Source: a virus
Lineage: Duplodnaviria > Heunggongvirae > Uroviricota > Caudoviricetes
DNA length: 28,894 nucleotides
Strand: one strand, 5' to 3'
IMG/VR virus record: IMGVR_UViG_2534682060_000015
Location: 1 to 28,894 of that record
The notes under the pieces are model-generated. The model did not search any database, was not told where the DNA came from, and saw nothing but the letters and a program-made list of their open reading frames with translations. This document shows, piece by piece, positions 9,518-27,616 of this stretch. Position 1 is the first letter of the stretch; the number at the start of each line of letters is the position of its first letter. Made by a program: the position numbers and the translations under genes.

Positions 9518-9549
9518 CACAACCTACGCTCGCAGAGGGTCAAAAATCG

Positions 9550-9822
9550 CGGGATATGCGGGATATCGGGATATGAAAAATATATTGCAGAAATATCAGT
9601 TATTTATGTGTTGTTGTCGTATCCCGCTGTATCCCGCCGTATCCCGGTATTTAGGTTTACGAGTGGTTGTAAAACAAACAAAATAACCGTATCCCGGAAT
9701 GTATCCCGCAATATCTTATTGATGCATAAGCAAAAAAAAACTTACCGGGATATGGCGGGATATGAAAAATCACATAACACCATGAAATAAATAAGTTTTT
9801 TTGTTCATATCCCGATATCCCG
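9550..9822. repeat. iteron field: at least 13 copies of GGGATAT / ATATCCC in both orientations, putative origin of replication
   Basis: Direct GGGATAT repeats at 9551..9575 and 9747..9763; inverted ATCCCG copies at 9621, 9631, 9641 (exact 10-bp spacing), 9691, 9703, 9809, 9817; the 13-mer GGGATATGAAAAA occurs twice; interspersed A/T runs. Confidence 0.6.
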
Positions 9823-9974
9823 GTAAAAAATGTTTTTTTACGCCTTATAGAGTACAGAAAAAAGATTGTTCAAATTTTGTATTACGATTGACTACTGTCA
9901 GCCATCCCACCCGGAAAAGGCATAAAAGCTGACAGGTAACTGACAATGAGACAGTTTTATTTTTACGTGCCGAT

Positions 9975-10532
9975 ATGACGGCAACAATGATGGGGCAGAG
10001 CATGACAAAACTGACCATTAACAGAAAACCGAAAGGTATTTACGGCACGCCGCAGAAAACGACGCAGGCGGCACAGAAGCAGGATAAAACCACATCGGCA
10101 CATAAAGTGATGCCCGGTAACCAGAAAGCGCAGCAGAAGCCCACAGGGGCGACACCGTGGCGGCATATGACCAAACGCCAGCGCAAAAACCGCAGGCGCG
10201 TTAACCGCCTCACTGAGTTGTGGCCTGACTTATTCTGCAGGGAAGCACCGAAGCCACTTAAGGTGGGGATATTCAATGACCTGGTGCAGGATATCGCCGT
10301 CAGGGAGCTGGCATTCGGTCCAGGGGCATTACGTGCGTCACTGGCATCTTATGCGCAGTCACCGCGCTATTACCGAGCCCTGGTTGCTGGTGGGGTGCGC
10401 TATGACCTGAAAGGCCAGCCGTGCGGCGAGGTGACACCACAGAAACAGAACGAGGCAGAAATGCGGCTGATGGCGCTGAATGAGAAGCGCAAACGTCAGC
10501 GCCGGGCAGCAAAGGAGAAAACAGGCGCATGA
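9975..10532 (+). CDS. ProQ/FinO-domain RNA-binding protein with basic N-terminal extension
   Basis: LTELWPDLFCREAPKPLKVGIFNDLVQDIAV...LRASLASYAQSPRYYRALVAGGVRYDLKGQPCGEVTPQ aligns by eye with the E. coli ProQ N-terminal domain (FLAERFPHCF...RPLKIGIFQDLV...[35 protein letters not shown]). Start codon uncertain (ATGs at 9975, 9987, 10002). Confidence 0.7.
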   Translation: MTATMMGQSMTKLTINRKPKGIYGTPQKTTQAAQKQDKTTSAHKVMPGNQKAQQKPTGATPWRHMTKRQRKNRRRVNRLTELWPDLFCREAPKPLKVGIFNDLVQDIAVRELAFGPGALRASLASYAQSPRYYRALVAGGVRYDLKGQPCGEVTPQKQNEAEMRLMALNEKRKRQRRAAKEKTGA

Positions 10533-10816
10533 TTCACGACAGCAAAGCGGAAGCACTGGAAGCGCGTGGTCTGGACCGGAGAGCGGCGGAAAGATGGGCA
10601 GAAGTCATAATGCGAGTGGATGGTGATAAGGCTCGGGAGGAGGCGGCAAAACGTCGCGCGGAATGTATCCGCAAGGCAGCCCGCCCACCAGCAAAGCTGG
10701 ATAATTTCGAAGAGATGCGCGAAACCATCAGCCAGGCACATGCTGGTATGGGATTACATCAGCCCAATGGTAAGGCATTCAGGAAATACCCCGGGGCAAA
10801 AAATTACAATCCATGA
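10529..10816 (+). CDS. hypothetical protein (95 aa), start overlapping the FinO-like stop
   Basis: ATGA overlap at 10529..10532; charged, Ala/Arg-rich; no family recognised. Confidence 0.4.
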   Translation: MIHDSKAEALEARGLDRRAAERWAEVIMRVDGDKAREEAAKRRAECIRKAARPPAKLDNFEEMRETISQAHAGMGLHQPNGKAFRKYPGAKNYNP

Positions 10817-10846: not shown

Positions 10847-11017
10847 TGTCAGCAAAAAAGCCCACAGACAGCAGTGTTGCGGGGGGTGTTTTCAGGTGGT
10901 TGAAGTCATTGGGAAGAACGTGAACATTACGCGCAAATGTTTCACAAATTGCAATAAAATGGATTGTTATTTCAGTTTATGCAATCATGAGCATTGCTTT
11001 GATCAGGAGAGATGATT

Positions 11018-11185
11018 ATGAGAAAAGCCAGCGTAAAACCCGTTTTACTCGCTCGTGAGCAGATTGAAGCATTACAGCGCATCCAGGACGAAGAGCGTCA
11101 AAAATCTGTGCTTGGTGTGGCCCCGTCGATTCATGTTATTGCCAGGCAACTGATGGACAAGGCACTTAAAGAGGTGAAACTGTGA
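11018..11185 (+). CDS. small hypothetical protein (55 aa)
   Basis: Hand-found ORF MRKASVKPVLLAREQIEALQRIQDEERQKSVLGVAPSIHVIARQLMDKALKEVKL with AGGAGA at 11005..11010; stop overlaps the GTG start of the next ORF. Confidence 0.45.
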   Translation: MRKASVKPVLLAREQIEALQRIQDEERQKSVLGVAPSIHVIARQLMDKALKEVKL

Positions 11186-11454
11186 AATTAAATATCAGAG
11201 TGGATAAACGCCAGCTATGGCAGAAAAAAGAGAACAGTGAGGCATTCAGGGATTTGCTGGTGGAAAATCTTCAGCACCGTTTCAGTGGAGAGCTGCCAGA
11301 CGCGCTGGGGAAAAAACTGGAATCTCTGACGGTGGAAATTGGCGATTATGGTTTTGTTGATGTTGAAAGCACGACTGCCAACACAGAAATCGTAAAACAG
11401 GTCGTCAACGATGTAATGAAAACCACGCTTAGCCAGCCATCCTGGCGTAACTGA
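11182..11454 (+). CDS. hypothetical protein (90 aa)
   Basis: Track ORF, translationally coupled to the upstream small ORF. Confidence 0.45.
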   Translation: MKLNIRVDKRQLWQKKENSEAFRDLLVENLQHRFSGELPDALGKKLESLTVEIGDYGFVDVESTTANTEIVKQVVNDVMKTTLSQPSWRN

Positions 11455-11553
11455 ATCCGCAAGGGGCGGTGATTGCCCCTCTCCGCCATACCCACAACGA
11501 ATTCCTTTTTCGCATGAAGTGAATGTTTATCGTATATGCATGAGGTGAGCCAC

Positions 11554-12078
11554 ATGTTGATGAGTAAAGCCGAATACGCCAAATACAAAGGTGTAAGCCG
11601 CCAGACAGTTTACGACTGGATCGAGAAAGGCGAGGTGGTCATGTCGGGTAAAAAAATTGATATGGAGGCTACAGAGTGGCGAAACAGCCCATCATCACAG
11701 GGAAAAGACACTGTTTCTGAAATGTGGCCTGAGAGAACGCTGGAAATGACGTGGGGCGAGTTCTGGAAAGCTGTCAGGGACAGAGACGGTAAAATTCCTG
11801 CGCCAGTAACGGACGATGACATAAAGCAGCGTGTGCAGGATGCAGCCGGGGAATTAGGCTGGGAAGCACACTTTCTTGATGATGGTGCTATCTGCCTTGA
11901 GGATGATGAAGGACAGCATTACTTTGAACAATACAATTTGCGGGGTAATGCCAGGCTGGCAATTCGTATGCTGCGCTGTGAACTCTGCTATGTTGCAGGT
12001 GATTATCCTGATGAACTTGAATCATGGAGCGAGGCAGGACTAAACGCCCTGGCTGAATGGGAGAAAACAGGTCATTAA
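11554..12078 (+). CDS. HTH DNA-binding protein, Nu1/TerS-like N-terminus (candidate packaging-redirection or site-recognition protein)
   Basis: SKAEYAKYKGVSRQTVYDWIEKGEVV resembles the winged-HTH N-terminus of lambda-type small terminase Nu1 (from memory); ATG 11554 with GAGGTGA at 11542..11548; track ORF begins at 11536. Confidence 0.45.
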   Translation: MLMSKAEYAKYKGVSRQTVYDWIEKGEVVMSGKKIDMEATEWRNSPSSQGKDTVSEMWPERTLEMTWGEFWKAVRDRDGKIPAPVTDDDIKQRVQDAAGELGWEAHFLDDGAICLEDDEGQHYFEQYNLRGNARLAIRMLRCELCYVAGDYPDELESWSEAGLNALAEWEKTGH

Positions 12079-12086
12079 CGGCCGCA

Positions 12087-12414
12087 AAAAGTGTCAAGTT
12101 GAGCAGCTTGCAAGGTTGACACTTTACACTCTGAACACGAAAAAGTGTCAACCTCGCTGTAAGCCCCGCCATTACTGGTCTTGCGCCATGTTTGCCACAT
12201 CAAAAGGCCGAAAAAATCGCGAAAAGTGTCAAGTTGCCATGCTTAGAAATGCTAAGTTTTGTTAAGGTTTTTCGCGGAAAAGTGTCAACTCAACCTAACG
12301 GATCTTAACGCTCACGCACAACAGCTGCAGCCAACGTGTAAAGGACTGATGCGAAGCAGGGCAGCTGTCAGCCTGTTATGGTTTGTTATGCCTTACCTGG
12401 GGAAAGTGTCAACC
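12087..12414. repeat. array of six copies of (C)GC(G)AAAAGTGTCAA(G/C) immediately downstream of the HTH gene
   Basis: Copies at 12087..12098 (+), 12116..12124 (inverted), 12141..12153, 12222..12233, 12277..12289 and 12402..12414; the extended 16-mer is conserved in three copies. Confidence 0.6.
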
Positions 12415-12621
12415 GCTACCGTTTCAGAAAGCTTCAATTGCAGAGCGTTGGCAGCACCTGTCAAAACTTGTCACCCGCCGGCACAGCCAGCGGGAATTTT
12501 TTGCTCTAAACGCTCTAAGTTACAGTTGATGTGATCTGTAAACTGCGGTTGCAACTAGTAATCGTATAAAACCATCAGTTGCAGTTTTACCTAACTATAA
12601 TCACAATGATAGTTTATATAA

Positions 12622-14121
12622 TTATACATTGTATGCGAGGTAATCATATAATGCTAAAAGTTTCCGATAATCAGTATGAGATTTGTCCTTAAACTCCCGG
12701 ACATGTTTTTCTAAATCTTCTAAGGGTATATGTTCATCATGAGCATTGAAGAAAATAATATTTTGTAATTTGCTATAACTATCAGAATGTTTAGCGTAAA
12801 TATCTTCAATGGTATGTTCTACTATTCTTTGATTCTTGGGTAACCTTGAATAGTTTAGATTTATTAATCTTTTTTGATTTTTCATTAATGATGTTAAGCA
12901 TTTAACACCTGGGCTGAATTTATGAAAAGCATAAGCTGGGAAATATGATCTTTTATTGATGGTGAACTTGTCAAGCAACTCGACAACATGTGATTCCTTA
13001 TTTGAAATTAGATCAAAATAGTTTTCCATCATCTCCTGAGGTGTTTGCATGTATATTTTTATAGAGTTAACAGAACCGACGGCTAGAACAAGCTCATCAT
13101 TTCTGAGTGTCTCCAAATCCCCAACAAGTTTTACTTTTATGTCTCCACCTTCCTTTATTTTACCAAAGATACTCTCTACTCTGCGTATATCCATTACCGA
13201 AACTGGTAAGTGGAGTTGAGCAAGTTCTTTATATATATCTGAGAAGTTATCTGTAACGATTTTATTAATGCTAATTAACCCTGCATCTTCTACTTCGAGA
13301 TCGTGAGAGACAATGTTTAAATTATCAATACCTTCTTCTCTTTCAATAAGAAGGAAGTTGTTTTTTATTTTTTCTGCAATTTTAGAACGAGGTGGTATGT
13401 ATGAGAATATTGTTTTTAATACTTTTTTTATATTCGGATCACCTATTCTATATCCCATAAATATAATCGGATTATGTATAAACAAGGATAGGAGTTGAGC
13501 ACGAATTAATTCATATTTTTTATCAAAATGAATATAGTCATCACTGGTTATTATTATGGATTCTGGTTTGCTAACGCATCCGTGAATTTTATAAACAGAA
13601 CCATAAGGATTGCTTAAAAGTATATCATTTCCAATAACAGGATTATAACCAATTGCACTTTCGATAAAATTATCATAGTTTGTCGTAATCACAGAGGCAA
13701 TGTTTTTTGAGGCCTTTACTAATTCAGATATTTCATCTTGAACTCCTAATTTTAAATCTGTGATATTAACCACCTGTGAAAGATAGATTTTAAATCTGCT
13801 GATATTTGAGGATATATCTTCCGACTCGTAGTATAAGTCATTGATATATTTGAACTTTCCATTCCTGTCTGCTTTTAGTGTTGCATCAAAAATTTGCTCT
13901 AATTGCGTTGCTACTTTTGGAAGGTCTACAATACCATCTTTATTGCTGTTTTCTCTGACAAGATCTTTATAGAGTTCATTAGAATTTGTCAGGTCAATAC
14001 TAATTTTCTCTAAGAGTGCCGGCCAGCTATAAGAAATTGATAAGTATCTCATGCTGAAACCTGCTCCAACAAATAATATTGGGTGGTTTCTGTAGCCTTT
14101 TAGAAAATCCGTTATATTCAT
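12622..14121 (-). CDS. SIR2-domain protein (499 aa): N-terminal SIR2-like NAD+ hydrolase domain plus unassigned ~300-aa C-terminal domain; candidate defence effector
   Basis: Rossmann motif PILFVGAGFS (aa 14-23), TTNYDNF (aa 146-152) and YKIHG (aa 178-181), the residue pattern of defence-associated SIR2 domains (ThsA/DSR-type Asn and His); GGAGG four nt upstream of the ATG (rc of 14122..14130); strongly AT-rich. Confidence 0.7.
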   Translation of the reverse strand: MNITDFLKGYRNHPILFVGAGFSMRYLSISYSWPALLEKISIDLTNSNELYKDLVRENSNKDGIVDLPKVATQLEQIFDATLKADRNGKFKYINDLYYESEDISSNISRFKIYLSQVVNITDLKLGVQDEISELVKASKNIASVITTNYDNFIESAIGYNPVIGNDILLSNPYGSVYKIHGCVSKPESIIITSDDYIHFDKKYELIRAQLLSLFIHNPIIFMGYRIGDPNIKKVLKTIFSYIPPRSKIAEKIKNNFLLIEREEGIDNLNIVSHDLEVEDAGLISINKIVTDNFSDIYKELAQLHLPVSVMDIRRVESIFGKIKEGGDIKVKLVGDLETLRNDELVLAVGSVNSIKIYMQTPQEMMENYFDLISNKESHVVELLDKFTINKRSYFPAYAFHKFSPGVKCLTSLMKNQKRLINLNYSRLPKNQRIVEHTIEDIYAKHSDSYSKLQNIIFFNAHDEHIPLEDLEKHVREFKDKSHTDYRKLLALYDYLAYNV

Positions 14122-14212
14122 TTGACCTCCGAGATATATTAGCGGTAATCATTAAAATTTGTAAGAACACAGCTCAAGTATGTATTTAGCTGTAGAGATA
14201 AGAATTTACTTG

Positions 14213-15340
14213 TTATTGACCATTTGGATAGTAAATTTTCATAAGCCTCTCTTTTTCTTTGTTGAATTCTTTATCAAAATCAAATTTTTTGTCTAAATTA
14301 GAATGTAAGTCATTTAACGCTTTAACAAGAACCCAAGCGCTGTGGTGGATGAATGGGTTTAATCCAATAATGTTTCCTGCAGAATTATCGTCAACTTTCT
14401 CAACTGCTAAAATCGCTTGGATTTTTTTACAGCTTTCCTGAATATTCCAATCTGAAACATGTAGTAATAATGCAGATAAAGCCATGAGTGGGTTGTTTGC
14501 TTTAATAGATGTAGGGGTGTAACTAATAATCATACGGAGTCGAGGGTGGTAGTCTCGAATCAGTCTCGCCATTCGAGTAGCTATCTCATATTTTTCGTTG
14601 AGAATTGATCTGTCAAATGTTGACGTCCCAGAGTCTTTAATTAATATAGTTCTTGCTTTTTTGACTACTGATTTAAGTCTTACATTCCAAAGCTCAGGAT
14701 TCTCATGACGGTCTAGATAGAATTGAGGATGCTTGAAATAAAGAGATTGATATACTTCCTCGTTGATATCGAACCAACTTTTGTTTATGGCGCTGAGATC
14801 GACAACATAATTATCATTGTTTCTCTTATATCTAATCAATGAGGCCTTTGCAAGGTAGATTATGTGAGGGCTTAAATTAAATGTAAAAGTGCCTTTTTCT
14901 CTTAAATCTAAGAACCATTGGCGCATGTTACGTATATCTTCTTGCGTAAAAATCTTCTCCTGAATTCCCGCACAGACCATAAGACCTATTAAGCGTGTCG
15001 CTTCAGAACCCGAGCGCATAAAATCAATTTGGCCTTCATTTGAAACAACGTTCAACTTATCATCGCCAGTATAAAAATCACAAAATGGGAGGTGAGAGTC
15101 TTTACCTAGATTGTCTCGAAATGCAAAGTGTGCTTGCTTTACAACTTTGCCGTTACTGAGAGATCTTCCTTCCGAAACGTAATAACCACCAGAAACATTG
15201 CATGCCGGGCATTCAACATCCTCTTTAACAAAATCTCTAAAACTTAGAGAAGGATCTGAGTTGCTACGTTCGAAAAGGTTTTCCAACTGCTTAGCATCCA
15301 GCTCACGCTTAAATTTTCTAGAATAGGCCGTTATCGTCAT
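14213..15340 (-). CDS. hypothetical protein (375 aa from ATG 15340; track ORF extends to TTG 15406), upstream partner of the SIR2 gene
   Basis: ATG at 15340 has AAGGAG 6 nt upstream (rc of 15347..15352); no Walker A, TIR or other motif recognised by eye; contains CPAC and PFCDFY cysteine motifs; ~90-bp gap to the SIR2 gene, same strand. Confidence 0.6.
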   Translation of the reverse strand: MTITAYSRKFKRELDAKQLENLFERSNSDPSLSFRDFVKEDVECPACNVSGGYYVSEGRSLSNGKVVKQAHFAFRDNLGKDSHLPFCDFYTGDDKLNVVSNEGQIDFMRSGSEATRLIGLMVCAGIQEKIFTQEDIRNMRQWFLDLREKGTFTFNLSPHIIYLAKASLIRYKRNNDNYVVDLSAINKSWFDINEEVYQSLYFKHPQFYLDRHENPELWNVRLKSVVKKARTILIKDSGTSTFDRSILNEKYEIATRMARLIRDYHPRLRMIISYTPTSIKANNPLMALSALLLHVSDWNIQESCKKIQAILAVEKVDDNSAGNIIGLNPFIHHSAWVLVKALNDLHSNLDKKFDFDKEFNKEKERLMKIYYPNGQ

Positions 15341-15365
15341 TTCGGTCTCCTTTCGAAGGGAGCTT

Positions 15366-15393
15366 AACTTTATCATAGGATGATCATAAAGGG
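15366..15393 (-). promoter_or_regulatory. imperfect palindrome CTTTATCATAGGATGATCATAAAG just upstream of the cassette RBS
   Basis: Arms CTTTATCA / TCATAAAG with one mismatch; holds two TATGAT hexamers on the minus strand; 14 nt upstream of the AAGGAG RBS. Confidence 0.35.
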
Positions 15394-15635
15394 AGCTGTA
15401 CGGCAAACATCACTAAGGTTGGGCCTGAAACACAAATTCCCTAAGTGCAATTTTGACGTCTAACTTACTTGATGTGCTTCAAGGCGGTTCTTACATTGTG
15501 GTATCAACAACAATAGAATGTTTTTTAAACAATTTAGATAGCAACAAGCAAGTCTGGGGGTACTTTTGGGGGTATCTAATGATTGCGTAATAGTTTTTTT
15601 ATATACATATCAATGTGTTGATTTCTACAATTTGT

Positions 15636-15653
15636 TCCTATTATCGGCACCAT
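15636..15653. repeat. attR core: second copy of TCCTATTATCGGCACCAT
   Basis: Exact 18-bp copy of tRNA-Thr 3' end (1428..1445); the 21-bp motif GGGGGTACTT(A/T)TGGGGGTAT lies inside the island near both cores (1560..1580 and 15556..15576). Confidence 0.75.
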
Positions 15654-16261
15654 CAAGAAAATCAATAACTTAGCTTAGCTTCTCTAAGAAATTGTATCTT
15701 CTGTTATCACTTACAAACGCCTATACGTTGTTATGGGCTTTGGTAGTGTAACACGTATGGGCGAGTAGTTCCCAGGCTCAACCTCGTAACAAGTTCCTTT
15801 GAAGCTGGAAGACGTGCCACCGTCTCTAAACCTTCTACCAAAACTCTTAGCAAGATGTTCCACACCTGGCGCGGTGTCCAATGATGCTACACGTCGAGAT
15901 GACGTTGCAGAGGATAAACAGGCTAAATGATGGGAAGAGTAGTTTTAAGTGCATAGTGGATTAAAGCCCACCTCTTCAAAACCTAACTTGATCGGGAAAG
16001 AATCAAGCTCTAGCACGGTTTCGTCCACCGGAGTACAACGGGTGCCTGATAAGAGAAGAACTGCTAAGACTTCATAGCTTTTGTGAAAAAGCCCTTTTTA
16101 GTGGATACGCCTACGGCGCTTATTTTTTGGGGTAGCCCATCAAAGGCGCTTTATGGCTCCTATTGTCTTGAAAATGTATCTTTACTTGTATTGTGTTTTA
16201 TGCGTAGTCTCCCTGTGTAGTATGTAACTTGTTAATTTTCATATGAATACAGAGGCACACG

Positions 16262-16414
16262 ATGAAAAACATTGCAGCTATCAAACGTAATAACCGCAAG
16301 ATTCACGCTCGTAAGTTCCTGTCTACGCCAGAAGGAAAAGCCTGGCTAGAGCGTAAACAGAGAGAGAACGAAGAAAGAAAACTCCTTAGTGAGTTGAAAT
16401 GGCTTAAGGATTGA
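16262..16414 (+). CDS. small basic hypothetical protein (50 aa)
   Basis: Hand-found ORF MKNIAAIKRNNRKIHARKFLSTPEGKAWLERKQRENEERKLLSELKWLKD with AGAGG 6 nt upstream; followed by a long hairpin. Confidence 0.35.
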   Translation: MKNIAAIKRNNRKIHARKFLSTPEGKAWLERKQRENEERKLLSELKWLKD

Positions 16415-16428
16415 ATCACCAGTAGGCG

Positions 16429-16476
16429 CATAACACATCCAGCGATCAAAGATGTGTTTATGCGCCTGATAGTGAA
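16429..16476. terminator. long near-perfect hairpin (16-bp stem) between convergent small ORFs
   Basis: AGGCGCATAACACATC (16429..16445) pairs with GATGTGTTTATGCGCCT (16460..16476); no clear U-tract on either side. Confidence 0.35.
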
Positions 16477-16480
16477 ATTA

Positions 16481-16639
16481 TTAAAGTCGTTTAGTTAACA
16501 TCGCCATTGCTTGAGCAATAATTGCAACAGCGTCCATCTCTTCACTGGAAGCGATGCAAATGCGGTAACTAATAGCCACAATGAATACATCAATAACGAG
16601 AAAGTGAATAGTGTGAAGATGTTTTGAAAGTAAATGCAT
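16481..16639 (-). CDS. small hydrophobic hypothetical peptide (52 aa)
   Basis: Hand-found ORF MHLLSKHLHTIHFLVIDVFIVAISYRICIASSEEMDAVAIIAQAMAMLTKRL with GGAGG 5 nt upstream (rc of 16645..16649); convergent with 16262..16414. Confidence 0.3.
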   Translation of the reverse strand: MHLLSKHLHTIHFLVIDVFIVAISYRICIASSEEMDAVAIIAQAMAMLTKRL

Positions 16640-17033
16640 AACTTCCTCCGGTTTTGGGATAGGAGGATTAGAACATGCATTAAATGATGTTGCAAGAATG
16701 GCAATTTACCCTAATAGTCTACTATTCACCTCAATCTACGTCAACCAATATTTGATGTAGATTTAATTTTCTTTTAAAAACAATATGTTGTTATTTGTTG
16801 AATTTTGGGGTTAGGTTGTTTTTTGAACGTTTTCATCAAGTGTAAAGATACGTTTAGCCTTCATAGTGAGTTCAGTTACTGTCTTTTTCTCTGAAATCGG
16901 CGCAAACGTGATCATCGCTTGAGGTTGCTGCTCTTACTTCTCAAATTGTGATGGAGAACGATAAAGGTTAGAGGGCACTTTTATTTTTTTAAGCAAGTGT
17001 ATAGCATAAGAATAATCTAAAAAGGGAGGTTAT

Positions 17034-17585
17034 ATGCGCAGGTCTGCATTTGTGAGGATGATGATTTTTACAACGTTGTTTGTAGGGGGAACTTCTACCG
17101 CAGTTGCTAAAAACTGCAAAAAAGGAATACCTTGTGGTAACTCGTGTATAGCTGTTGGTAAGACGTGCCGGATTGGCTCTTATGCCCCTTCATCTTATAA
17201 AAATCATTCATACTCTTATCCTTCATCCTCTATTCGAAGCTCGCAATCAAATAATTCACGAAAAACTGAAGGAGTGAAAACGACTCCTGCTGCCAAAAAT
17301 TATCTTTGCCAATACTCTATTGCATCAATCGAAAACGGACGTTTAGGGGCATTACGTGTTCAGGGATACGCACAAGTAACTTTATATGCAGATAGCTTCA
17401 AGGCTAACAGATTAAATGGAACATATTTGATATCGCCAAAACTGAATGCTAACGGCAAGTTTATGATGGCAGATGATAAAAGCAAGGTTTATGCTTATGA
17501 TTCTTGGCTATTAAATTTTGCAATAAGCGATCGTATCACAAGAACGACAGAACAATGGGATCGATGTAAGCTCAATCAAAAATAA
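17034..17585 (+). CDS. secreted hypothetical protein with Sec-type signal peptide (183 aa)
   Basis: N-terminus MRRSAFVRMMIFTTLFVGGTSTAVA-KN (basic n-region, hydrophobic core, AVA cleavage motif); GGGAGG 4 nt upstream; Cys-rich mature N-terminus. Confidence 0.55.
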   Translation: MRRSAFVRMMIFTTLFVGGTSTAVAKNCKKGIPCGNSCIAVGKTCRIGSYAPSSYKNHSYSYPSSSIRSSQSNNSRKTEGVKTTPAAKNYLCQYSIASIENGRLGALRVQGYAQVTLYADSFKANRLNGTYLISPKLNANGKFMMADDKSKVYAYDSWLLNFAISDRITRTTEQWDRCKLNQK

Positions 17586-17603
17586 CAGTTAGAGAAGCTC
17601 TTG

Positions 17604-17660
17604 TAGAGGCATTATTGAGTTATTGATTTTAATATTTTTGTGCCTCTATGGGCTTTTTTT
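17604..17660 (+). terminator. terminator-like hairpin plus T-run after the secreted-protein gene
   Basis: TAGAGGCA (17605..17612) pairs with TGCCTCTA (17641..17648) over a long loop, then GGGCTTTTTTT (17651..17660). Confidence 0.35.
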
Positions 17661-18740
17661 GCCTTTTTGCAAAGTAGGAGAGAGCACAGGAATCGTTAAA
17701 ATTAATTATTGGGGTATTTAAGGTTATTTTCAGGTGGTTTAAGGGTATTAAACTTGATTTAATTGATTAAAATATAAACAGATAGTCCTGTATCTTATTG
17801 ATTTATAAGGTTATTTTTAAATTAAGGTAAATAAAAAATAAATAGCCATAAATAGCTATAAATACATCTAAATACCTTTATCCCTTCCCTTATGGCTAGA
17901 TTGCGAGAAGTGCTTAACGCGATTTTCACCGCCCCCCGATCTGGAAAATCCAGAATCCCCAAATATCAGCAAGGAATTTTCTTGCGTAATCAACATCGTT
18001 TTTACCAATTAAATCATTACACAGAAAGCCTTTCTGTAATGTCTCTCACTAAACTTTCACTAAACACGAGAATGATCGGTTTTATGTCGGATCAGATGCT
18101 AGAAACAGCACCACGTCTCACAAGGGCTGTAAGCGATGAAACCAGTGTTTATGCGGGTGCAGGTCAAAATATGGGCCAAAATCCATTTAACATAATAAGC
18201 GTAATATGCACTAAGGAACACATAGAACGCCTTGAGTTGATGTATAAGGGGAAAAGTGGTGGATTTTTTACGTAGGAGCACGAGAGGGCTTCTATTGACT
18301 TTTGTATGCTATGAAATATAATAGAAGGTTTTTATTTTTATGTTGATAGTGATTGCACATTAAAGATTGAAAGCAAATTTAAACATAAATTTTCAACACG
18401 TGAAAGAACTTGTTCGACAAATGATAGAACGTTTATTGAGCAACAATTTTGCAGTGATGCGCTATATGCCGCATAACATAAGGCTTTGCTGATGATGACG
18501 CAAAAGTGAAGAAAGCTAACATTGCACTTTTTAAGCTACTTTTCATTGGATTTTTACGTAGGAATTACACAGGGATTAATCATCAATTACATTGAATTTA
18601 AGCCTGTTTTAGATGTTTAATTTTGGTAGCAAGAAACACTTTTAGAAGATCATTGCACAGATGTTATGTGATGATTGGATGTAACGGTAGGTCACTGTGA
18701 GCTACCCCTATCAAGTCTGATACCCGATAAGTATAAATAA

Positions 18741-18843
18741 CACCTGGGAAATGAGTTCCGATCTATTTAGGAAATAACCGTGGAAGTGGTTTCCTACCTA
18801 CCTAGGAAATGAGTTCCTATCACCTAGGAAATGATTTCCGACA
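18741..18843. repeat. cluster of palindromic repeats (CACCT)(A/G)GGAAATGA(G/T)TTCC in a long ORF-free region
   Basis: Copies at 18741..18763, 18801..18817 and 18821..18843, plus the related GGAAATAACCGTGGAAGTGGTTTCC between them; each unit carries inverted GGAA/TTCC half-sites. Confidence 0.55.
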
Positions 18844-19704
18844 ATACTATAATTAAACTACAATTAAACTATATAATATAATTCTTTTTTATCTTTATAA
18901 GAATAATTATAGGGATACCCGTTAGGGAGTCTAACGACTATCCCTTAATCTATTGGCATTCGCCAGAACCTTGCACAAGTTAGAGTGTTAGTCGTTAGAC
19001 TGCTTGTCATAACACATAGTTTTTGTTTGTTGATGTTAGTTAGTAGATCTATGTTCGCTAATGCCGCTCACAACGAATATGTAATCTACTATGTGCAAAT
19101 AGCCTACGGCTTGCGTAAGGCTAAATAGTCTTGCGCTGTGCGCTGTGCGCTTCAATAGTTCCATTGATGAGGCTTACGCCAATCTAACGATCATCAATCT
19201 ATTTAAGAGAAAATCTATTGTGCAATACTCTGACGAGTGCAATAACCTTGTGTGCTACGCGTTAGCGATGTTAGCACATAGACACAGACAACAACCAACA
19301 ACAAACAAAAAAGAATGGTTTTAGTAGTTGAAGGTTAAATAAGTTTCTACCGCTTAAATCAAGCCGTAGGCGAGCTAAACGTATATAAGGCAGGGAAACC
19401 TTAGCGGTAATAGATTAGCTCATTATAGAGCTTCTGAGGAGCTTTACAGGTATTTTATAAGGTGTCTGAAATTAGAGTTTATCTATCATCTCCTTTTCAT
19501 ATACCTAACAAATACAAAATAAGCCCCTTAAATAAACCTCTGGCGAGCTAAACTGTCATTACATAAGGGAATGTATTGTTTTTATCAAAACCTCGTTAGA
19601 ACGCGTTTTAGAGAATAAGGAAGAATAGCATCACACAGAAGAGCACGAATTGCTAAGTAAAATCATAACATACTGAAAAATGATTAATATTTTATGGGCG
19701 GGGG

Positions 19705-19733
19705 TTGACAAAAGCCTTTAGTTATGGTAAAGT
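19705..19733 (+). promoter_or_regulatory. sigma70-like promoter (TTGACA, 17-bp spacer, TAAAGT)
   Basis: Perfect -35 TTGACA at 19705..19710, 17-nt spacer, -10-like TAAAGT at 19728..19733; about 120 nt upstream of the small ORF at 19857. Confidence 0.4.
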
Positions 19734-19856
19734 AATATTAGGGGCAGGAAAACATTCCTATCCTCTAAATAATTAAACCAATGCACCGCACTTTGAAGCC
19801 CAAGAGGCTTGCAAGGTGTCTTTTTCTTTTAACCAAATAGAATAGGAGGTTAATTA

Positions 19857-20033
19857 GTGAAGTATTTCACTTCTCAAGATGTAGTTGAAGCCTGGAAACG
19901 TGGTGAGATCAACCGCTTTAGGGTAAGAATGAATAGGAACACAGCGCGACGCTGTGGTTATCCAGAGCGTGAAAAATGTTTTGACGATGCACTAAAAATT
20001 ATTGATGAACTGCGTAAAGCAGAGAAAGAATAA
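19857..20033 (+). CDS. small hypothetical protein (58 aa)
   Basis: GTG start with AGGAGG at 19845..19850; VKYFTSQDVVEAWKRGEINRFRVRMNRNTARRCGYPEREKCFDDALKIIDELRKAEKE. Confidence 0.4.
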   Translation: MKYFTSQDVVEAWKRGEINRFRVRMNRNTARRCGYPEREKCFDDALKIIDELRKAEKE

Positions 20034-20056
20034 TAACAGGAGAAGGAGAAAACCAA

Positions 20057-20245
20057 ATGAATATTAATTTTGATTCTGCAACTTATAACGCGTTGTTAAA
20101 TCGTGCAAAGGCAGAAGGGAAATCAATTCCAAAACTTGTTAATGAATTACTAATTACAGTCCTTACAAAGGAGGAACTAAATGATCAAAAATATCAAAAC
20201 AATTGCCGAAGCGAAAGCCAAATGTCTAAATCAGAAAGATGGTAA
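20057..20245 (+). CDS. ribbon-helix-helix (CopG/Arc-like) DNA-binding protein
   Basis: MNINFDSATYNALLNRAKAEGKSIPKLVNELLITVL follows the beta-strand/helix/helix pattern of RHH regulators; AGGAGAAGGAG upstream. Confidence 0.55.
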   Translation: MNINFDSATYNALLNRAKAEGKSIPKLVNELLITVLTKEELNDQKYQNNCRSESQMSKSERW

Positions 20246-20849
20246 ACAAAAATATGTAGTCGTTGAGCAGTGGTTGAAGATGTTTAAAAAGTGGTTCTCA
20301 CCGTCAGGTAATGAATACACCGCTACACTGCCAGCCGTTGAAATCTATAGCTATATAGCTGGATTCAATGAACAAGGGCAAGAATGTTACGCCACTCAAA
20401 AAACATTATCTAATATTGGAATGGTTAGTGATCGCCAGGTTCGCAATATTATAAATATGTTTGTTGATATGGGAGTTCTTTCTGTAGAGGCTCGGGACGG
20501 GCAAACATCACTCTATAAAGCATTACCATTCACAGATGCACATATTACTCCCCCTGGAGAGTCATCACTACCTGATCCTTCTGAGAAAGAAGACGAATCT
20601 AATGAAATATTGAATGTTTCAGAAATCATCATTGAAGAAGAAACACAGGAATCAGAGTTCCCTGAGCGGCCCGAAATTTTTACTTGGCTTCTTTCCCTTG
20701 ATAAGAAGAAACCACCGCACGAAGAAACAGAAGATTTTGTAAAACGAGCATTAGATTCAAAGAATATCTATCTTGAGAAACAGGCTTTTCACGATCTGAT
20801 AATATCTCTAAGAGAAAAAAGTGAAATATACGATTCAATACCATTCTAA
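20181..20849 (+). CDS. winged-HTH protein resembling N-terminal domains of phage/plasmid replication initiators, acidic C-terminus
   Basis: YATQKTLSNIGMVSDRQVRNIINMFVDMGVLSVEARDGQTSLYK is an HTH-like segment; AAGGAGG 6 nt upstream of ATG 20181; acidic tail. Confidence 0.45.
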   Translation: MIKNIKTIAEAKAKCLNQKDGKQKYVVVEQWLKMFKKWFSPSGNEYTATLPAVEIYSYIAGFNEQGQECYATQKTLSNIGMVSDRQVRNIINMFVDMGVLSVEARDGQTSLYKALPFTDAHITPPGESSLPDPSEKEDESNEILNVSEIIIEEETQESEFPERPEIFTWLLSLDKKKPPHEETEDFVKRALDSKNIYLEKQAFHDLIISLREKSEIYDSIPF

Positions 20850-21032
20850 GGAGAGTAAATGACTTATAACAGCACTACATTTCGTCTTTTGAAATTAAAC
20901 AAAGATTTTGAATTGTTTATCACAAACAATCAATAACAACAGATCGGGCAATACATATGGCAAATGCATTTATGGCGATATTCATCGTAACTATGGCATT
21001 AAGTTTTTATAATCCACATAAAAAGAGGGAAA

Positions 21033-21419
21033 ATGGGAAGAAAGAAAAAGAACAACTTAAAACGTATTGAAAAAAACAGTAATTTCAATTCAACAAGACA
21101 ACGTCCACCGACACATACCAATAACGAAATTCCAGGGGAAGAGATAATCTTCATTTTAGAATCTAACAGCCCACCACTTACAAACGAAGAATTAGAAATT
21201 ATTCAATCAATGGGTGATGGTGTGTATTTCAAACCCAGAACAAGAAAGACAACGATTATAGAACCTGGCACATTAAAGAAATGGCAGCTGTTAAATTTTA
21301 CCAGCTACAGGCACTATATCGGTTTTAATAGTTTCAACAATCAGGTAGGCGGCGTTACAGAAACAGATCTGATGCAGCACCTGATCGACACTCTCGCATC
21401 TAACAAACGTTCAAACTAA
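21033..21419 (+). CDS. hypothetical protein (128 aa)
   Basis: Track ORF; first gene of a tightly packed three-gene block. Confidence 0.4.
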   Translation: MGRKKKNNLKRIEKNSNFNSTRQRPPTHTNNEIPGEEIIFILESNSPPLTNEELEIIQSMGDGVYFKPRTRKTTIIEPGTLKKWQLLNFTSYRHYIGFNSFNNQVGGVTETDLMQHLIDTLASNKRSN

Positions 21420-21436
21420 AAATAAAAGGAACAACA

Positions 21437-21640
21437 ATGATCGACCATATACAGGAAACACAATTATTTCAGATGATCTTGTCTGATGCAAAAAACTATG
21501 CTGAGTTAATTCGGCTGGCAAAAGAAACAGAAGACTACGAAGCATTAGAGCGTTACCGTGATGAAGTGCTGACGCTCAAGACACCTTTTAACATCGTATT
21601 GAATATGATTAATGATGCATTACAAGGAGAATACGCATAA
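21437..21640 (+). CDS. hypothetical acidic protein (67 aa)
   Basis: Track ORF; stop overlaps the next start. Confidence 0.4.
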   Translation: MIDHIQETQLFQMILSDAKNYAELIRLAKETEDYEALERYRDEVLTLKTPFNIVLNMINDALQGEYA

Positions 21641-21948
21641 TGGAAGAAGATATTAGCAATGCAATGGAACAACTTTTAGATCTGACTATCTCACTACAAA
21701 CAAGAATAAATCAAGCCTATTCAGATTTATGCGATTACACGCTCTCTCAATGCGTTATTAGCTTAATGAAGGTGAATGTAAGCCTTGACGATTTTATCTC
21801 TCTGGTGAGCGATTTAGAGCTAATTGAGGACGATGCCAAGATGTGCACTCAAACCATCACAGACACCGCCAGCACGTTAAAGGCTGCAAGTGAAGAGATT
21901 CAGCAATTAGTAGATGATTTAGCAAAAAGTGCTATTTTCTCTAAATGA
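21640..21948 (+). CDS. hypothetical acidic protein (102 aa)
   Basis: Track ORF, translationally coupled to the upstream ORF. Confidence 0.4.
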   Translation: MEEDISNAMEQLLDLTISLQTRINQAYSDLCDYTLSQCVISLMKVNVSLDDFISLVSDLELIEDDAKMCTQTITDTASTLKAASEEIQQLVDDLAKSAIFSK

Positions 21949-22852
21949 TAATGAAAATCATTTGCATTTATAACGATTTCATTATATAATGATATTAGGG
22001 GTAGATAAAAAGGTTTTGACTGGTGTTAATCCTTTTCCTGTCATAAATCCCTGCATATGGAAGGTGATAGCCTCAAAGGTTGAATGGCATTAACCTCTAA
22101 CAAATATTACCTTCCATCCCCTCAAGAAGTTTTAGAATAATCATAACTCCCTCTTTGATTGTTGATTGTTTCTACGTTGTGTTGATGAATGTTGTTAGGC
22201 ATTGTGCTTAATTTTGATAAAAGCGGGTAGGTGTTATCTCCTTGCCCTTCCCGCTCTTATTTTTCATCTATGCTTATCCTAAAGCTCCTTATTTTGTCCG
22301 AAAACATTAAAGAGCCTTACACTGATAGTTATATTTTATAACTATTTACTAACATCATTAAACTCTTATTTAATGACAGAAGTTAGTAACAGAATAATCT
22401 ATTAAGTTGTTGTCAAAAACAATCATCTGCATAGCGTTAGCCGCAAGCAGAGAGAGTTTAGCTAAGAATTGTGCAATAACCTTTGGAAATATTGATAGCA
22501 AAACGGGTTTTATAGACTGCAAATCTATAATCTTTGGTTGTAAAAAAGCTTTTTCTGAAACGGTAGATTACTGTTGGTGTAGTTAATCCCTATTAAAATT
22601 TAATCTGTGAGTAGATTGGAACAGTGATTCCTTAAAATCTGACTGGTGCATCCACACCATGAAAGATAGCGGTTAGCCACCGCGCCCCGAATAGATATTC
22701 CTGATTGATTCCGCATGTTTTCCTAAGAGCATGTTTTCAGGAATATCTGTTCACCCTTTAAACCTATCTTTAAGCATGTTTAATAAGCATTCTTAGAGAT
22801 ACGTTTAAAACCTCCTCAAGGTTTTACTTATCGCTGTGTATTGCCCGACACG

Positions 22853-22912
22853 TTAATAAATCCCCCTCGCTATTGTCAGATTGAACCTCTTATAGCCTGG
22901 GGGATTTATTAA
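22853..22912. promoter_or_regulatory. perfect 14-bp inverted repeat TTAATAAATCCCCC / GGGGGATTTATTAA upstream of the structural gene block
   Basis: Arms 22853..22866 and 22899..22912 separated by 32 nt; about 30 bp upstream of ORF 22941. Confidence 0.45.
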
Positions 22913-22940
22913 ATTCCAACATAATGGAATCGTTATATAA

Positions 22941-23150
22941 ATGAAACAAGAAATTATCCTGAAATATGGCAATGAAAAGTTAACACTAACTGAAGATGTG
23001 TTGAATGCTACAGCCTACGCGCTTGGCATCACTCCCACAGAATTAAAGAAACAGTGTGAACGTCTTTATAAGGCTGAAAGCAATAAACCATCTCACCAAG
23101 ATTTGATTAATGCTAAAGCTCAACAAATCAAACAATCTAAGGAAAAATAA
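22941..23150 (+). CDS. hypothetical protein (69 aa)
   Basis: Track ORF; stop overlaps the start of the next gene. Confidence 0.4.
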   Translation: MKQEIILKYGNEKLTLTEDVLNATAYALGITPTELKKQCERLYKAESNKPSHQDLINAKAQQIKQSKEK

Positions 23151-23524
23151 TGGCTATTTTAAAATTAAGCGATGTTTTCCCACATCGTAAAAGCATCACT
23201 GACGTAGTGAGCTATGCAACCGACCCTTACGCGGCTGTAGAAAGCAAAAAATTTGCAGCACTTGCACAAGATGTAACGTGCGGCGACCTCATTGATTCAT
23301 CCGGCGCTAAATATGTTAGCGGCGCTGATGTTCTTGTCGTTGTGTCTGACTTCGTAACTGCTGATTCAAATAAAACAGTTAACGTGCTTCGTGCTAATGC
23401 CGGACTTGTTTGCATCAAAGCTGATGCCCTGAATGCCGAAGGCGCTGTAAAAGAAGCTGCTATTGCAGCTCTCGCTGCTAAAGGCTTCCAGCTTGAAGGC
23501 TTCCACTCTGTTTTCACATCTTAA
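23150..23524 (+). CDS. putative phage head protein (decoration- or scaffold-like, 124 aa)
   Basis: Ala/Val-rich small protein immediately upstream of the capsid-like gene; functional call is by position and size only. Confidence 0.3.
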   Translation: MAILKLSDVFPHRKSITDVVSYATDPYAAVESKKFAALAQDVTCGDLIDSSGAKYVSGADVLVVVSDFVTADSNKTVNVLRANAGLVCIKADALNAEGAVKEAAIAALAAKGFQLEGFHSVFTS

Positions 23525-23540
23525 GAAGGAATAAATAATA

Positions 23541-24569
23541 ATGATTATCGGAAATGAAGTGGTTGATCTTGCTCCACTGTTCGAATTAAACGACTCACGC
23601 AATTACCTACTGTCTACTCTGGATTTTACTGATCCTGTGCCTGTAGAAAGTCACAAAGTGGCTGTTTCCCAGCTTATCGAGAGCAATGAATCTCTGTTCA
23701 ACCATCCTACAAGCCGTTTTAGCTCTGAGCATAACGTTACTAAGCGTGAGAACGGGGAAGAATGGCTGATTGAAATCCCTTACTTCCTGCGTGAAGACCT
23801 GATCAAACCGCAGGACGTGCAAGGCAAACGCAAAGCCGGAAGCTCTATTGAAGAAACACTGCCGGATCTGTATGCGGAATATATCGCTAAACACAATGTT
23901 GCATTCCAGCGCACTAAAGAAAGCATCCTCGCGGCTTCTCTGTTCTCTGGCAAGACACATACCCCGAAAACTGACGATGTTCTGATCGATTACAGCATTC
24001 TGTTCGGTGTGTCTCCAATGACTGCAACCGTTGACGCATCCAGCACCAACACAATGACCGTATTCAAGCAATTTGATCAGATGCATACGGATATGATTGC
24101 TAAGGCACAAAGCCAGGCTGCAACCATTGAGCGTGTTGTTGTGTTCTGTAAACCTGCGGCATTCAACGCTATTCGTTACAGCGTTGGCATGGTTAATGCG
24201 TTCCAGTATGCAAGCCCTGTAGACGATGCAAACGTGGTGTTTAATGTGCGTTCTCTGCTGCCTGGTGTAACTACTTTCACCATTCCAGGAACTAACATTG
24301 ATCTGATCAAAGTGACTGATCCGCTGCTGCTGGCACATATGACCGCAGACGCTGTAGCTGTTCCTAAATTCGCTAAAGGTGCAGGTGTTTACCAATCTAT
24401 TTATGGCGCTCCTTCCAGTTCCTTCGATCTGCTGTCCCAAGGTGCAAAAGAGTATTACAGCTATGCTTTCGAATCGAATCGCGGCGACGCAGTGCACGTA
24501 GTGACCGAGAATAGCTCGCTTGTGGTTAACCACGGTGTTGGTTTCTCTGTTCAGATTACAGTGGCGTAA
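23541..24569 (+). CDS. putative phage major capsid protein (342 aa)
   Basis: Size and position after a small head-like protein; C-terminal segment ...VVNHGVGFSVQITVA resembles the C-terminus of lambda-type major capsid protein E as I recall it. The antisense 337-aa ORF on the opposite strand is treated as spurious. Confidence 0.45.
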   Translation: MIIGNEVVDLAPLFELNDSRNYLLSTLDFTDPVPVESHKVAVSQLIESNESLFNHPTSRFSSEHNVTKRENGEEWLIEIPYFLREDLIKPQDVQGKRKAGSSIEETLPDLYAEYIAKHNVAFQRTKESILAASLFSGKTHTPKTDDVLIDYSILFGVSPMTATVDASSTNTMTVFKQFDQMHTDMIAKAQSQAATIERVVVFCKPAAFNAIRYSVGMVNAFQYASPVDDANVVFNVRSLLPGVTTFTIPGTNIDLIKVTDPLLLAHMTADAVAVPKFAKGAGVYQSIYGAPSSSFDLLSQGAKEYYSYAFESNRGDAVHVVTENSSLVVNHGVGFSVQITVA

Positions 24570-24737
24570 ATAAAGCGTTAATAGACGATTCCCCATCGTC
24601 TGGAAATAATCGGGGGGCAATAAGGGTAAAGGGATTAACTAACCTGTAGGCGCAAATACAGTAACGAATCTCTTTGCCCTTATTGTTTTTCTACTGTCTA
24701 CAAACCCAAATAAAAATATATATGTGAGAGAAAACCA

Positions 24738-24935
24738 ATGAATACAGAAAATTCACAGGCATTAATTCTTAAATCTGTAAAAGAACTGGCAGCTATTAGC
24801 GATGACTCAATAATCAATGTCAGTGCCTTATGCAGAATGCTTTCAATTGATGCAAATAATGTGCGCCAGCGTGTCTTTCAGACTGGGTGCAGCACTTTCG
24901 AAGCAATTCAATACTATTGCTCTAAAAAACAATAA
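24738..24935 (+). CDS. hypothetical protein (65 aa)
   Basis: Track ORF between the capsid-like gene and the 613-aa gene. Confidence 0.35.
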   Translation: MNTENSQALILKSVKELAAISDDSIINVSALCRMLSIDANNVRQRVFQTGCSTFEAIQYYCSKKQ

Positions 24936-24969
24936 TAAACAACAATCATAATACAGGGAAACAATTAGC

Positions 24970-26811
24970 ATGTTAGACCTTACCGTCAGCCGCTTATCAA
25001 ACGTTGTCACCTTCCAGGTTGATCGACCATCATTAGAGAAAGCAAAAGCAGAAGTAGAAAAACTTCGTAAACAAATGGCGGCTGTGAAAGATATAGAATT
25101 GCGTGTTAAGACACATAAACAATCAACCGCTAAAGCAAAAAAAGACGTAGACGATATTGCTAAAAAGCAAGCACAGGCTGATAAAGCTAATGCTAAAGCA
25201 CAATTAGCCGCTCAACGTGTAGTTGCAAGAGAACAAAAAGCCCTGGCAGCACGCAAAGAGAAGGCAGACTTAAAACTGTTAGACGTTGGATCAAGCATTA
25301 GTGCATTGCACCGCCTTTCTGTAGCGGAACAATATAAAGCTATTGCACAGGCTAGAGAAATTGCCCTCCAATATGAAAGAGGAGCTATTAGTCTGGCACG
25401 TATGAATAGCCAAATGAAACGCCTACAACAGCAACAACGTAAGATTAATGGCAATCGTAACGCTCACGCTAAAGCCTATGCACCTGTTAAGGGTAGCGGG
25501 AGTATTGGCGGCGGTGCTGCGGCTGTTATGCTGGGTGGCTTAGGCGCTGGCGCTACGTATATGGCTATGAGCAAAGCCTCTGAATTTGTTACTAACAGCT
25601 TTGCGAATGCTGAAACGCTGGGTGAATTGTATAGCCGTGCCAAGCTGGGCGGTGTAGACGTTAACCAGATGAACAATATTGAGCAATGGGCATATAAAAA
25701 CGGCGTTGATTCAATGATGGGGGATCAAGGTCGTAGGAAGTATCTCGATCAGATGAAAGATGTACGGGAGAAGGCTACTAAATCTTATGATGAGGCTGAA
25801 TATGTAGTTGATAAGAAAACTGGTAAAGGAGAATGGAAGGGCGGCGATAGCGGCATCAATACTTTAATGAATGAAAGATTCCTAACTAAAAAGGATCTAA
25901 AAGACTTTGCTGATAATCCGGCTGGTCTGGTTAGTAAAGCAGTTCAGGGAATGGTAGCTAAAGGCTATTCAGATGCACAAATCGGTAGTCGTCTGGAAGA
26001 TCTGGCTGATGATTTGATGCTCACCTCTAAATACTGGACACGCTCCGCTAAAGAAGTGGAACAATCAGCACGAGAACAACGAGAATCAGGGCGCTGGGTA
26101 ACGCAGGCACAACAGGAAAGCGTTATTAAATTCCGTGAACTGAATAATGCACTTAGTGGGCTTTCTGACTCACAAGGGATCGCCTTTGTTGATGGCTTTA
26201 TGAAATCTCTTGATCCGAAAGTGATTGAAGAGTTTAAAAAGAGCATGGTTGCAATGCTGCCAATGTTTACCAAATTAGGCGAGGCTATCGGCGGATTGGT
26301 TAACGCTGTAATGAAAGCAATCAACTGGCTGATGAAAAACGACGAGAAGACGGCAGCTATTCAAAAGAATTTAGGGGATGCACCGCCACTATCTAACGAA
26401 GGAATGAAGCAGAATCTTTCTAATCTCACTCCTGATCAATATAAAGGCGCTGGCACCGGAACAACTAAGCCAGATAACAGCAATTCCCTGGTTAACACTA
26501 TTAAAAGCTGGTTTATGCCAGAAGAAACGGTAGGTGGGGCGCAGGCTGTAAATCAATACAGTCTCGAAGGACAAAACATTGCAAATCTGAAACAGAGTGC
26601 AGCACAACAAGCTCTCAAGGCTCCTTCTTACACCTTTGCACCTGTTATTAACTTCAATCCAGAATTACAAGTAAATGCAGAAGTGCCGCTAACTATCGAA
26701 TCAGACACCGGACGATTGAGCGAATTTATCGACTTCAAATCAAAGGCATCCTCCGCTGAGTTTAGCAAGCTATTAACGCTGGGTGTTATGTCAGGCGGGT
26801 CAACCTATTAA
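24970..26811 (+). CDS. phage structural-type protein with N-terminal coiled coil and glycine-rich hydrophobic segment (tape-measure-like or ejection/internal protein, 613 aa)
   Basis: Long Lys/Ala/Gln-rich predicted coiled coil (aa ~20-170), then GSGSIGGGAAAVMLGGLGAGATYMAMS glycine-zipper segment. Confidence 0.4.
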   Translation: MLDLTVSRLSNVVTFQVDRPSLEKAKAEVEKLRKQMAAVKDIELRVKTHKQSTAKAKKDVDDIAKKQAQADKANAKAQLAAQRVVAREQKALAARKEKADLKLLDVGSSISALHRLSVAEQYKAIAQAREIALQYERGAISLARMNSQMKRLQQQQRKINGNRNAHAKAYAPVKGSGSIGGGAAAVMLGGLGAGATYMAMSKASEFVTNSFANAETLGELYSRAKLGGVDVNQMNNIEQWAYKNGVDSMMGDQGRRKYLDQMKDVREKATKSYDEAEYVVDKKTGKGEWKGGDSGINTLMNERFLTKKDLKDFADNPAGLVSKAVQGMVAKGYSDAQIGSRLEDLADDLMLTSKYWTRSAKEVEQSAREQRESGRWVTQAQQESVIKFRELNNALSGLSDSQGIAFVDGFMKSLDPKVIEEFKKSMVAMLPMFTKLGEAIGGLVNAVMKAINWLMKNDEKTAAIQKNLGDAPPLSNEGMKQNLSNLTPDQYKGAGTGTTKPDNSNSLVNTIKSWFMPEETVGGAQAVNQYSLEGQNIANLKQSAAQQALKAPSYTFAPVINFNPELQVNAEVPLTIESDTGRLSEFIDFKSKASSAEFSKLLTLGVMSGGSTY

Positions 26812-26858
26812 TCATCACTGTGGGGCGGTTTAGCCCCCTTAAATAAGGATTACAAATT

Positions 26859-27536: not shown

Positions 27537-27616
27537 CCTTAAACGCCTATGAAACGCTCTGTAACGAGATAATCATAAAAGAGGCATCAGTCTATATTGA
27601 AGCCTCTTTATTACGT

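Follow-up and report, generated by a model that had tools for sequence, protein, structure and literature searches.

A winged-HTH protein and its array of 10-bp sites: a candidate packaging-specificity module of enterobacterial PICI-type satellites

A gene for a 174-aa protein with an N-terminal winged helix-turn-helix (HTH) and a cluster of 10-bp AAAGTGTCAA sites next to it recur together in at least 10 enterobacterial genera, and we infer from this joint distribution that the two are a cognate pair in which the protein would bind the sites. The pair was analyzed in a 28.9-kb stretch of DNA (the window) and is undescribed in the sources searched, no description of the protein, the motif, or the module being found in the full-text literature. 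We tentatively read it as a packaging-specificity module consisting of an adaptor and a recognition array, a reading that we rate at somewhat below an even chance and whose functional steps we infer throughout.

The repeat array and the adjacent HTH gene

The window contains six exact copies of AAAGTGTCAA, all of them at 12088-12412, and no further copies when one mismatch is allowed. Chance expectation is 0.08 copies, and six were reached in 0 of 100 shuffles. The original prediction of a six-copy array beside an HTH gene was therefore right, coordinates included, and needs amendment in its orientation and consensus: five copies are direct, the second (S2) is inverted, and the 11-mer AAAAGTGTCAA is kept in only four of the six.

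The array starts 10 bp past the stop codon of the gene with S1 (12088-12097, +), and this distance stays within 8-17 bp in every genus examined. S2 (12116-12125, -) has an extended form, GGTTGACACTTT, that is kept across genera, and is followed by S3 (12142-12151, +), S4 (12223-12232, +), and S5 (12279-12288, +). Cross-genus conservation additionally delimits two elements that are not repeats. Element B, GCCATTACTGG (12168-12178), is a near-palindrome between S3 and S4 that becomes a perfect palindrome, GCCAGTACTGGC, in Serratia aquatilis (locus L015), while element A, ATGCTAAGTTTTGTTAAGGT (12249-12268), lies between S4 and S5 and is the same in Pantoea (L014) despite a protein identity of 59%. 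Element A and S5 make up a unit of about 40 bp, and a second, diverged unit of element A plus site (12374-12413, +; 73% to 12250-12289) holds S6 (12403-12412). S5 is the exact end of homology with most related E. coli islands, the break falling at 12288 where variable cargo begins, and the S6 unit sits in a strain-specific segment.

The ORF upstream of the array spans 11536-12078 (+), with an alternative ATG at 11536. In RefSeq the identical gene of E. coli AH01 starts at 11554 (WP_000930135.1, "hypothetical protein," 174 aa), and this start is supported since the N-terminus MLMSK is invariant in 36 homologs. The predicted ORF is thus real, with a product of 174 aa from 11554 (11554-12078, +) instead of the 180 aa first proposed.

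An AlphaFold2 model of the protein (pLDDT 88.8) consists of a winged HTH (residues 1-45), a disordered linker (46-55), and an alpha/beta domain (58-170). As modeled, the winged HTH belongs to the Xis/MerR/Nu1 fold class, and its structural matches include excisionases and regulators as well as TerS. The best match in PHROGs is the Nu1-type TerS (phrog_57), limited to residues 4-45, which bears out the Nu1-like N-terminus noticed at the outset. Pfam HTH_17 scores 22.3 bits, under the 27-bit cut-off, and hhalign aligns about 30 HTH residues with both RppA (29 residues, probability 36%) and lambda Nu1 (probability 21%). The 174-aa protein has no RppC match by phmmer against the PDB at E<=1, where a genuine RppA, used as a control, matches 6hlk (RppC) at 5e-31. 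The C-terminal domain has no relatives outside its own family in three fold libraries, including the PDB and BFVD, or in a profile search of 5.8 billion proteins, and it has no likeness to a TerS, Rpp, or terminase-binding domain. Profile comparison with the TerS/Nu1 families, the check proposed with the original prediction, therefore recovers the HTH fold and nothing in the rest of the protein. Since the C-terminal domain matches nothing known, we regard the protein as a member of neither the TerS nor the Rpp family, and since the TerS, RppA, and Nu1 alignments are restricted to the HTH, "Nu1-like HTH" is a fair description of the fold. The two halves also differ in conservation, with pairwise identity averaging 80% over residues 1-41 and 46% over the C-terminal domain, and the recognition helix VSRQTVYDW is almost invariant among homologs.

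The host island and the distribution of the pair

An 18-bp direct repeat, TCCTATTATCGGCACCAT, at 1428-1445 (attL) and 15636-15653 (attR) bounds an island of 14.2 kb. This repeat is the 3' end of tRNA-Thr (1369-1444) and contains TCCTATTATC, the same core as reported for EcCIMP1. The island encodes a P4-type integrase with an adjoining AlpA gene, an AntA antirepressor, DUF4222, a DUF927 primase-helicase, ProQ/FinO, and PerC. Two small ORFs follow, and the gene of the HTH protein closes the core ahead of the cargo. This backbone is common to EcCICFT073 and EcCIMP1, and from its sequence the island is a PICI-type satellite, having the size, att sites, int, AlpA, and primase with an origin, and no full virion gene set. 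The two small ORFs, of 57 aa (11012-11185, +) and 90 aa (11182-11454, +), are co-oriented with the HTH gene, and the first is a conserved late-module marker of related satellites that is present without sites in EcCIMP1. Between the 90-aa ORF and the HTH gene, which are 100 bp apart, there is a hairpin, GGGGC-GGTGATT-GCCCC (11463-11479), with no T-tract.

On the opposite strand past the HTH gene are a SIR2 gene and then a gene for a 397-aa protein, which together form the cargo (12622-15406, -; GC 0.27-0.41). The convergent SIR2 gene that had been proposed is confirmed at 12622-14121 (-) and is PADLOC candidate PDC-S25 (E 2e-139), while the 397-aa protein has no PADLOC match. The inverted repeat noticed just before the SIR2 gene, at 12538-12590, exists but folds only weakly as RNA (-18.4 kcal/mol, z -1.74). 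It belongs to the variable cargo beyond the 12288 break and probably ends the SIR2 gene. Sister islands carry SEFIR, or a methyltransferase with DUF262 and HEPN, or other genes in the same place, and this exchange of cargo points to a defense hotspot starting at S5. A second, unrelated element stands in tandem after attR (15654-28894), parts of which match 785 E. coli genomes. It encodes a homolog of major capsid protein E (23541-24569), a Dit-like tail protein (26859-27536), and an integrase (27617-28894, -), and is possibly another satellite or a cryptic prophage.

The cargo also separates the array from the attachment site, the attR core being 3.2 kb away. If the protein were a Xis-like factor acting at attR, the array would be a set of excisionase sites. 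The fold agrees with that of excisionases and other recombination directionality factors (RDFs; HTH_17, AlpA, Xis), while the size and the position of the sites, which in that group are on the att arms, do not. Typical RDFs are less than half the size of this protein, and the island already encodes an AlpA beside int. Proteins of the P2 Cox, 186 Apl, BldC, and Xis type are shorter, at 55-90 aa, and the repeats that they bind at promoters or att are contiguous and helically phased, whereas here there is an extra 115-aa domain and the sites are dispersed and far from att. We consider an excisionase role very improbable.

Directly 3' of the primase gene, at 9540-9830, about 14 (G)CGGGATAT iterons in both orientations surround AT-rich tracts (GC 0.37), and from this arrangement the region is probably the replication origin of the island. 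A related CGGGATAAGT set adjoins the DUF927 gene in Buttiauxella (L011, 7526-7760), apart from the array. Because this separate and canonical origin is present, the array is not taken to be the origin, and it is indeed 9540-9830, not the array, that has the features of an iteron-type PICI origin. The array might instead be a second replication or maintenance site, either an iteron-like enhancer (cf. crr of P4) or a centromere for single-protein partition of the pSK1 Par type. This is improbable, given that origins with different iterons lie directly past the primase gene both here and in the Buttiauxella island, that the array is not AT-rich (GC 0.46-0.49), that three unrelated primase/helicase families are found alongside it, and that an element replicating only after induction has no evident need of partition.

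The gene is present in 184 of 5,426 complete E. coli genomes and in many Enterobacterales, and the same motif is found 3' of it in Escherichia, Pantoea, Raoultella, Rouxiella, Buttiauxella, Erwinia, Serratia, Scandinavium, and Klebsiella. The layout S1(+) S2(-) S3(+) B S4(+) A S5(+) is kept across genera, while the spacers diverge in both length and sequence, the spacing of S1 and S2 ranging from 20 to 48 nt. Among 33 distinct E. coli-type arrays, 49 of 50 positions are invariant in the sites versus 81 of 159 in the spacers; on this comparison the sites are under strong constraint. Gene and sites may also be displaced from one another, by an IS91-family transposase gene in Erwinia and by cargo genes in Serratia aquatilis. 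The protein in the latter island (L015, 6001-10800) has 215 aa, with the same HTH (80% over 41 residues) and another C-terminus; the island has a D5-type primase, and SMEK plus DUF2326/AAA cargo separates the gene from the main site cluster (10298-10782).

When IMG/VR was scanned for S1 paired with S2, 66 loci came up, about 48 of them with the gene adjacent and about 8 with a second family. This second family (family B; 186-195 aa) has an HTH region in common with the first (family A; hhalign probability 96%) and another C-terminus. In E. coli this family, too, occupies the final core position, in a PICI with a DUF927 primase, PerC, and the 57-aa marker ORF. Its sites, six to nine in both orientations, fill a 290-bp gap upstream of its own start codon. 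Both proteins are absent from EcCIMP1 and EcCICFT073, which share the backbone, and neither island contains any sites. The primases found alongside the array belong to three unrelated families, and the integrases are likewise of several kinds. Since primases, integrases, and C-termini vary and islands without the protein have no sites, the HTH is the sole constant partner of the motif.

The distribution of the sites also bears on whether the array could be an RNA element, in which S1, S2, and S3 would pair into alternative hairpins within the 3' UTR of the late mRNA. The predicted fold of 12076-12175 (-29.3 kcal/mol, z -2.83) and the ProQ/FinO-family RNA chaperone encoded in the island would be consistent with this. 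S4-S6, however, are unpaired direct copies, the S1-S2 spacing varies as given above, the sites are invariant and do not covary, the array has no Rfam match, and family B has its sites upstream of the gene in both orientations, all of which makes an RNA element barely credible.

More can be said for a transcriptional or architectural regulator that would bind the array to repress or insulate transcription, be it in autoregulation, as a roadblock where the late operon ends, or as a shield of the core operon against the convergent cargo gene. The fold class includes regulators of the P2 Cox, BldC, and MerR types that bind direct repeats, the motif contains TTGACA, and two Pantoea members carry the automatic UniRef name "Repressor." In family B the array precedes the gene, and the proximal site gives a conserved, -35-like GGGTTGACA about 45 nt before the ATG. 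In family A, however, the array is 3' of the gene, where it cannot control the SIR2 promoter because it faces the 3' end of that convergent gene. A promoter and terminator scan of 12080-12420 yielded no promoter-like or terminator-like site. The array, moreover, stays the same from one island to the next as the cargo changes its genes and their orientation, and an operator role leaves unexplained why the array can stand on either side of the gene. We consider a regulatory function, the main rival of the packaging reading, unlikely, though with a sizable residual chance.

Packaging and comparison with known systems

A site for a DNA transaction is favored over an operator because the array is downstream of the gene in family A and upstream in family B. 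Packaging is favored among such transactions since replication (the separate origin) and integration/excision (att and AlpA) are already accounted for, since it is the only satellite core function without an assigned determinant here, and since the module occupies the cos1-rppA position of EcCICFT073 and is found alongside neither in any of 63 loci. Under the packaging reading, the invariant winged HTH would bind each 10-bp site as a monomer-type unit, and a multi-protein complex spanning about 250-330 bp would form on the satellite where the late operon ends. This complex would mark the satellite DNA and thereby serve as the packaging-specificity determinant. On this reading, the near-palindromic element B is a candidate for the point of cleavage. 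The variable orphan C-terminal domain would recruit the terminase of the helper phage, with divergent versions contacting different helper terminases. In this way the module would do the job of cos1 and RppA in EcCICFT073-type PICIs, or of the satellite TerS and pac in SaPIs.

Judged from sequence, the pair would work most like cos-Rpp or cosB-Nu1, yet it belongs to neither. The cos1 and RppA of EcCICFT073-type PICIs have been described (PMC6739421, Fillol-Salom 2019; PMC9026076, Murialdo & Feiss 2022), and in EcCICFT073 cos1, GGGCGGCGACCT (L021, 15559-15570), and rppA are the last core module before the accessory genes. In both systems the last core gene encodes a small satellite protein whose N-terminus is a Nu1-like winged HTH, and this gene adjoins a noncoding recognition region; the backbone of int, AlpA, Icd-like, DUF4222, primase, and PerC is alike. 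The homology with RppA is not detectable past the approximately 30 HTH residues, and the C-terminus is an unrelated alpha/beta fold where that of RppA consists of dimerization helices. Unlike in EcCICFT073, the gene has neither cosQ nor cosN ahead of it, and where cos1-RppA has one R3-like site upstream, five to six dispersed 10-bp sites are found here downstream. The protein resembles lambda gpNu1 in its N-terminal winged-HTH DNA-binding domain and differs from it in lacking regions for TerL binding and self-assembly, in having neither terL nor cosN beside its gene, and again in the downstream position of its sites.

The two modules look like alternatives at one position, as far as gene content indicates. 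Neither rppA nor the CFT073 capsid gene nor lambda cosN occurs at any of the 63 loci that encode the HTH protein, many of which carry a CFT073-type primase (43-71% identity). The island itself contains no lambda, phi80, or P2 cos, no cosN-like sequence common to any phage, and no TerS, Rpp, capsid, or terL gene. Only its thrW att region matches phages, the array having no significant phage match even at E<=10, and homologs of either protein family are absent from 50,697 phage genomes. We know of no helper phage for the thrW island. The only near-match to lambda cosN in the window is GTGCGGCGACCT (23278-23289; 11 of 12 bases), which lies in the second element, in the ORF just upstream of the capsid gene, and may mean nothing since about 0.8 such matches are expected by chance.

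Three further lines were set aside. EcCIMP1 is an experimentally mobilized PICI at the same att site, and data on it are not transferable since it lacks both gene and sites. The motif TTGACAC is similar to the proposed R3-PICI of EcCICFT073 (GGTGACAC, bp 49-56), with an overlap that falls outside the conserved bp 55-63 and is within chance, and is kept as no more than a lead. The third line concerns one group of metagenomic podoviruses, which are unrelated to Enterobacterales and encode no such HTH. In contigs of this group (L100, 11175-11870; also L117, L125, L132, and L156), 22-25 copies of AAAGTGT(C/A)AA lie 1.2-1.9 kb upstream of a terS-like/terL/portal operon, and the TerL is 45% identical to that of Pseudomonas phage Rollin. 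These 10-mers are either coincidence or the use of the same word by an unrelated phage.

The Klebsiella and Serratia members of the family are encoded last or nearly last in satellites that lie inside the late genes of Mulock/E217-like myovirus prophages. The Klebsiella satellites are inserted in the capsid gene (L089 and L091, 10515-11355), the right junction being placed by homology to Mulock-like phages, and a direct-repeat search of these loci found no att repeats. The Serratia satellite (L094, 9001-9700) is probably inserted in a Mu-F-like gene. These embedded satellites carry baseplate or tail-fiber genes of their own. At two of the three Klebsiella loci (L089 and L091), a DUF5681 gene of the satellite stands 45 nt past S1-S3, and at the third (L090) it is truncated after 32 codons. 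DUF5681 homologs occur in 231 matched phage records, and in several of those listed they sit at one end of the genome, directly before terL or overlapping it. In Klebsiella phage Mulock, a close relative of the host prophage, the TerS candidate is unrelated and the surroundings of the terminase genes are free of sites.

The packaging-recognition idea of the original prediction thus finds partial support, from the constrained sites and their cos-rppA position, and is limited by the lack of TerS/Rpp membership and of a cosN. In weighing it, we counted the Nu1-type TerS as best PHROG match and the DUF5681-terL neighborhood in its favor. Counted against it were the absence of a shared cosN, a C-terminal domain unlike TerS or Rpp, the absence of homologs from phage genomes, the winged HTH matching excisionases and regulators as well, site spacing that is not conserved between genera, the cargo between gene and main array in Serratia aquatilis, and the state of phage Mulock, without sites and with its own TerS candidate.

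Implications for satellite biology

Many Gram-negative PICI-like satellites have no identifiable cos, TerS, Rpp, or capsid-remodeling gene. PICIs such as the one studied here have been termed "Type C," with their packaging stated as not known (PMC11773190), and the authors of the EcCIMP1 study raise the question. It is possible, if doubtful, that the pair represents a new class of satellite packaging adaptor, in which a monomer-type winged HTH would coat an array and an orphan, fast-evolving C-terminus, of which there are two unrelated versions, would recruit various helper terminases. Such an adaptor would be the missing determinant of the abundant Type C PICIs of enterobacteria, including the satellites in prophage late genes, and would do so without copying the cos or pac of a helper.

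The two HTH families with their AAAGTGTCAA array provide an easily recognized candidate for a packaging determinant in these satellites. The module also marks the left border of their defense-gene hotspot, which makes it useful for annotation. If its function should be regulatory, the pair would still be a new DNA-protein recognition system.
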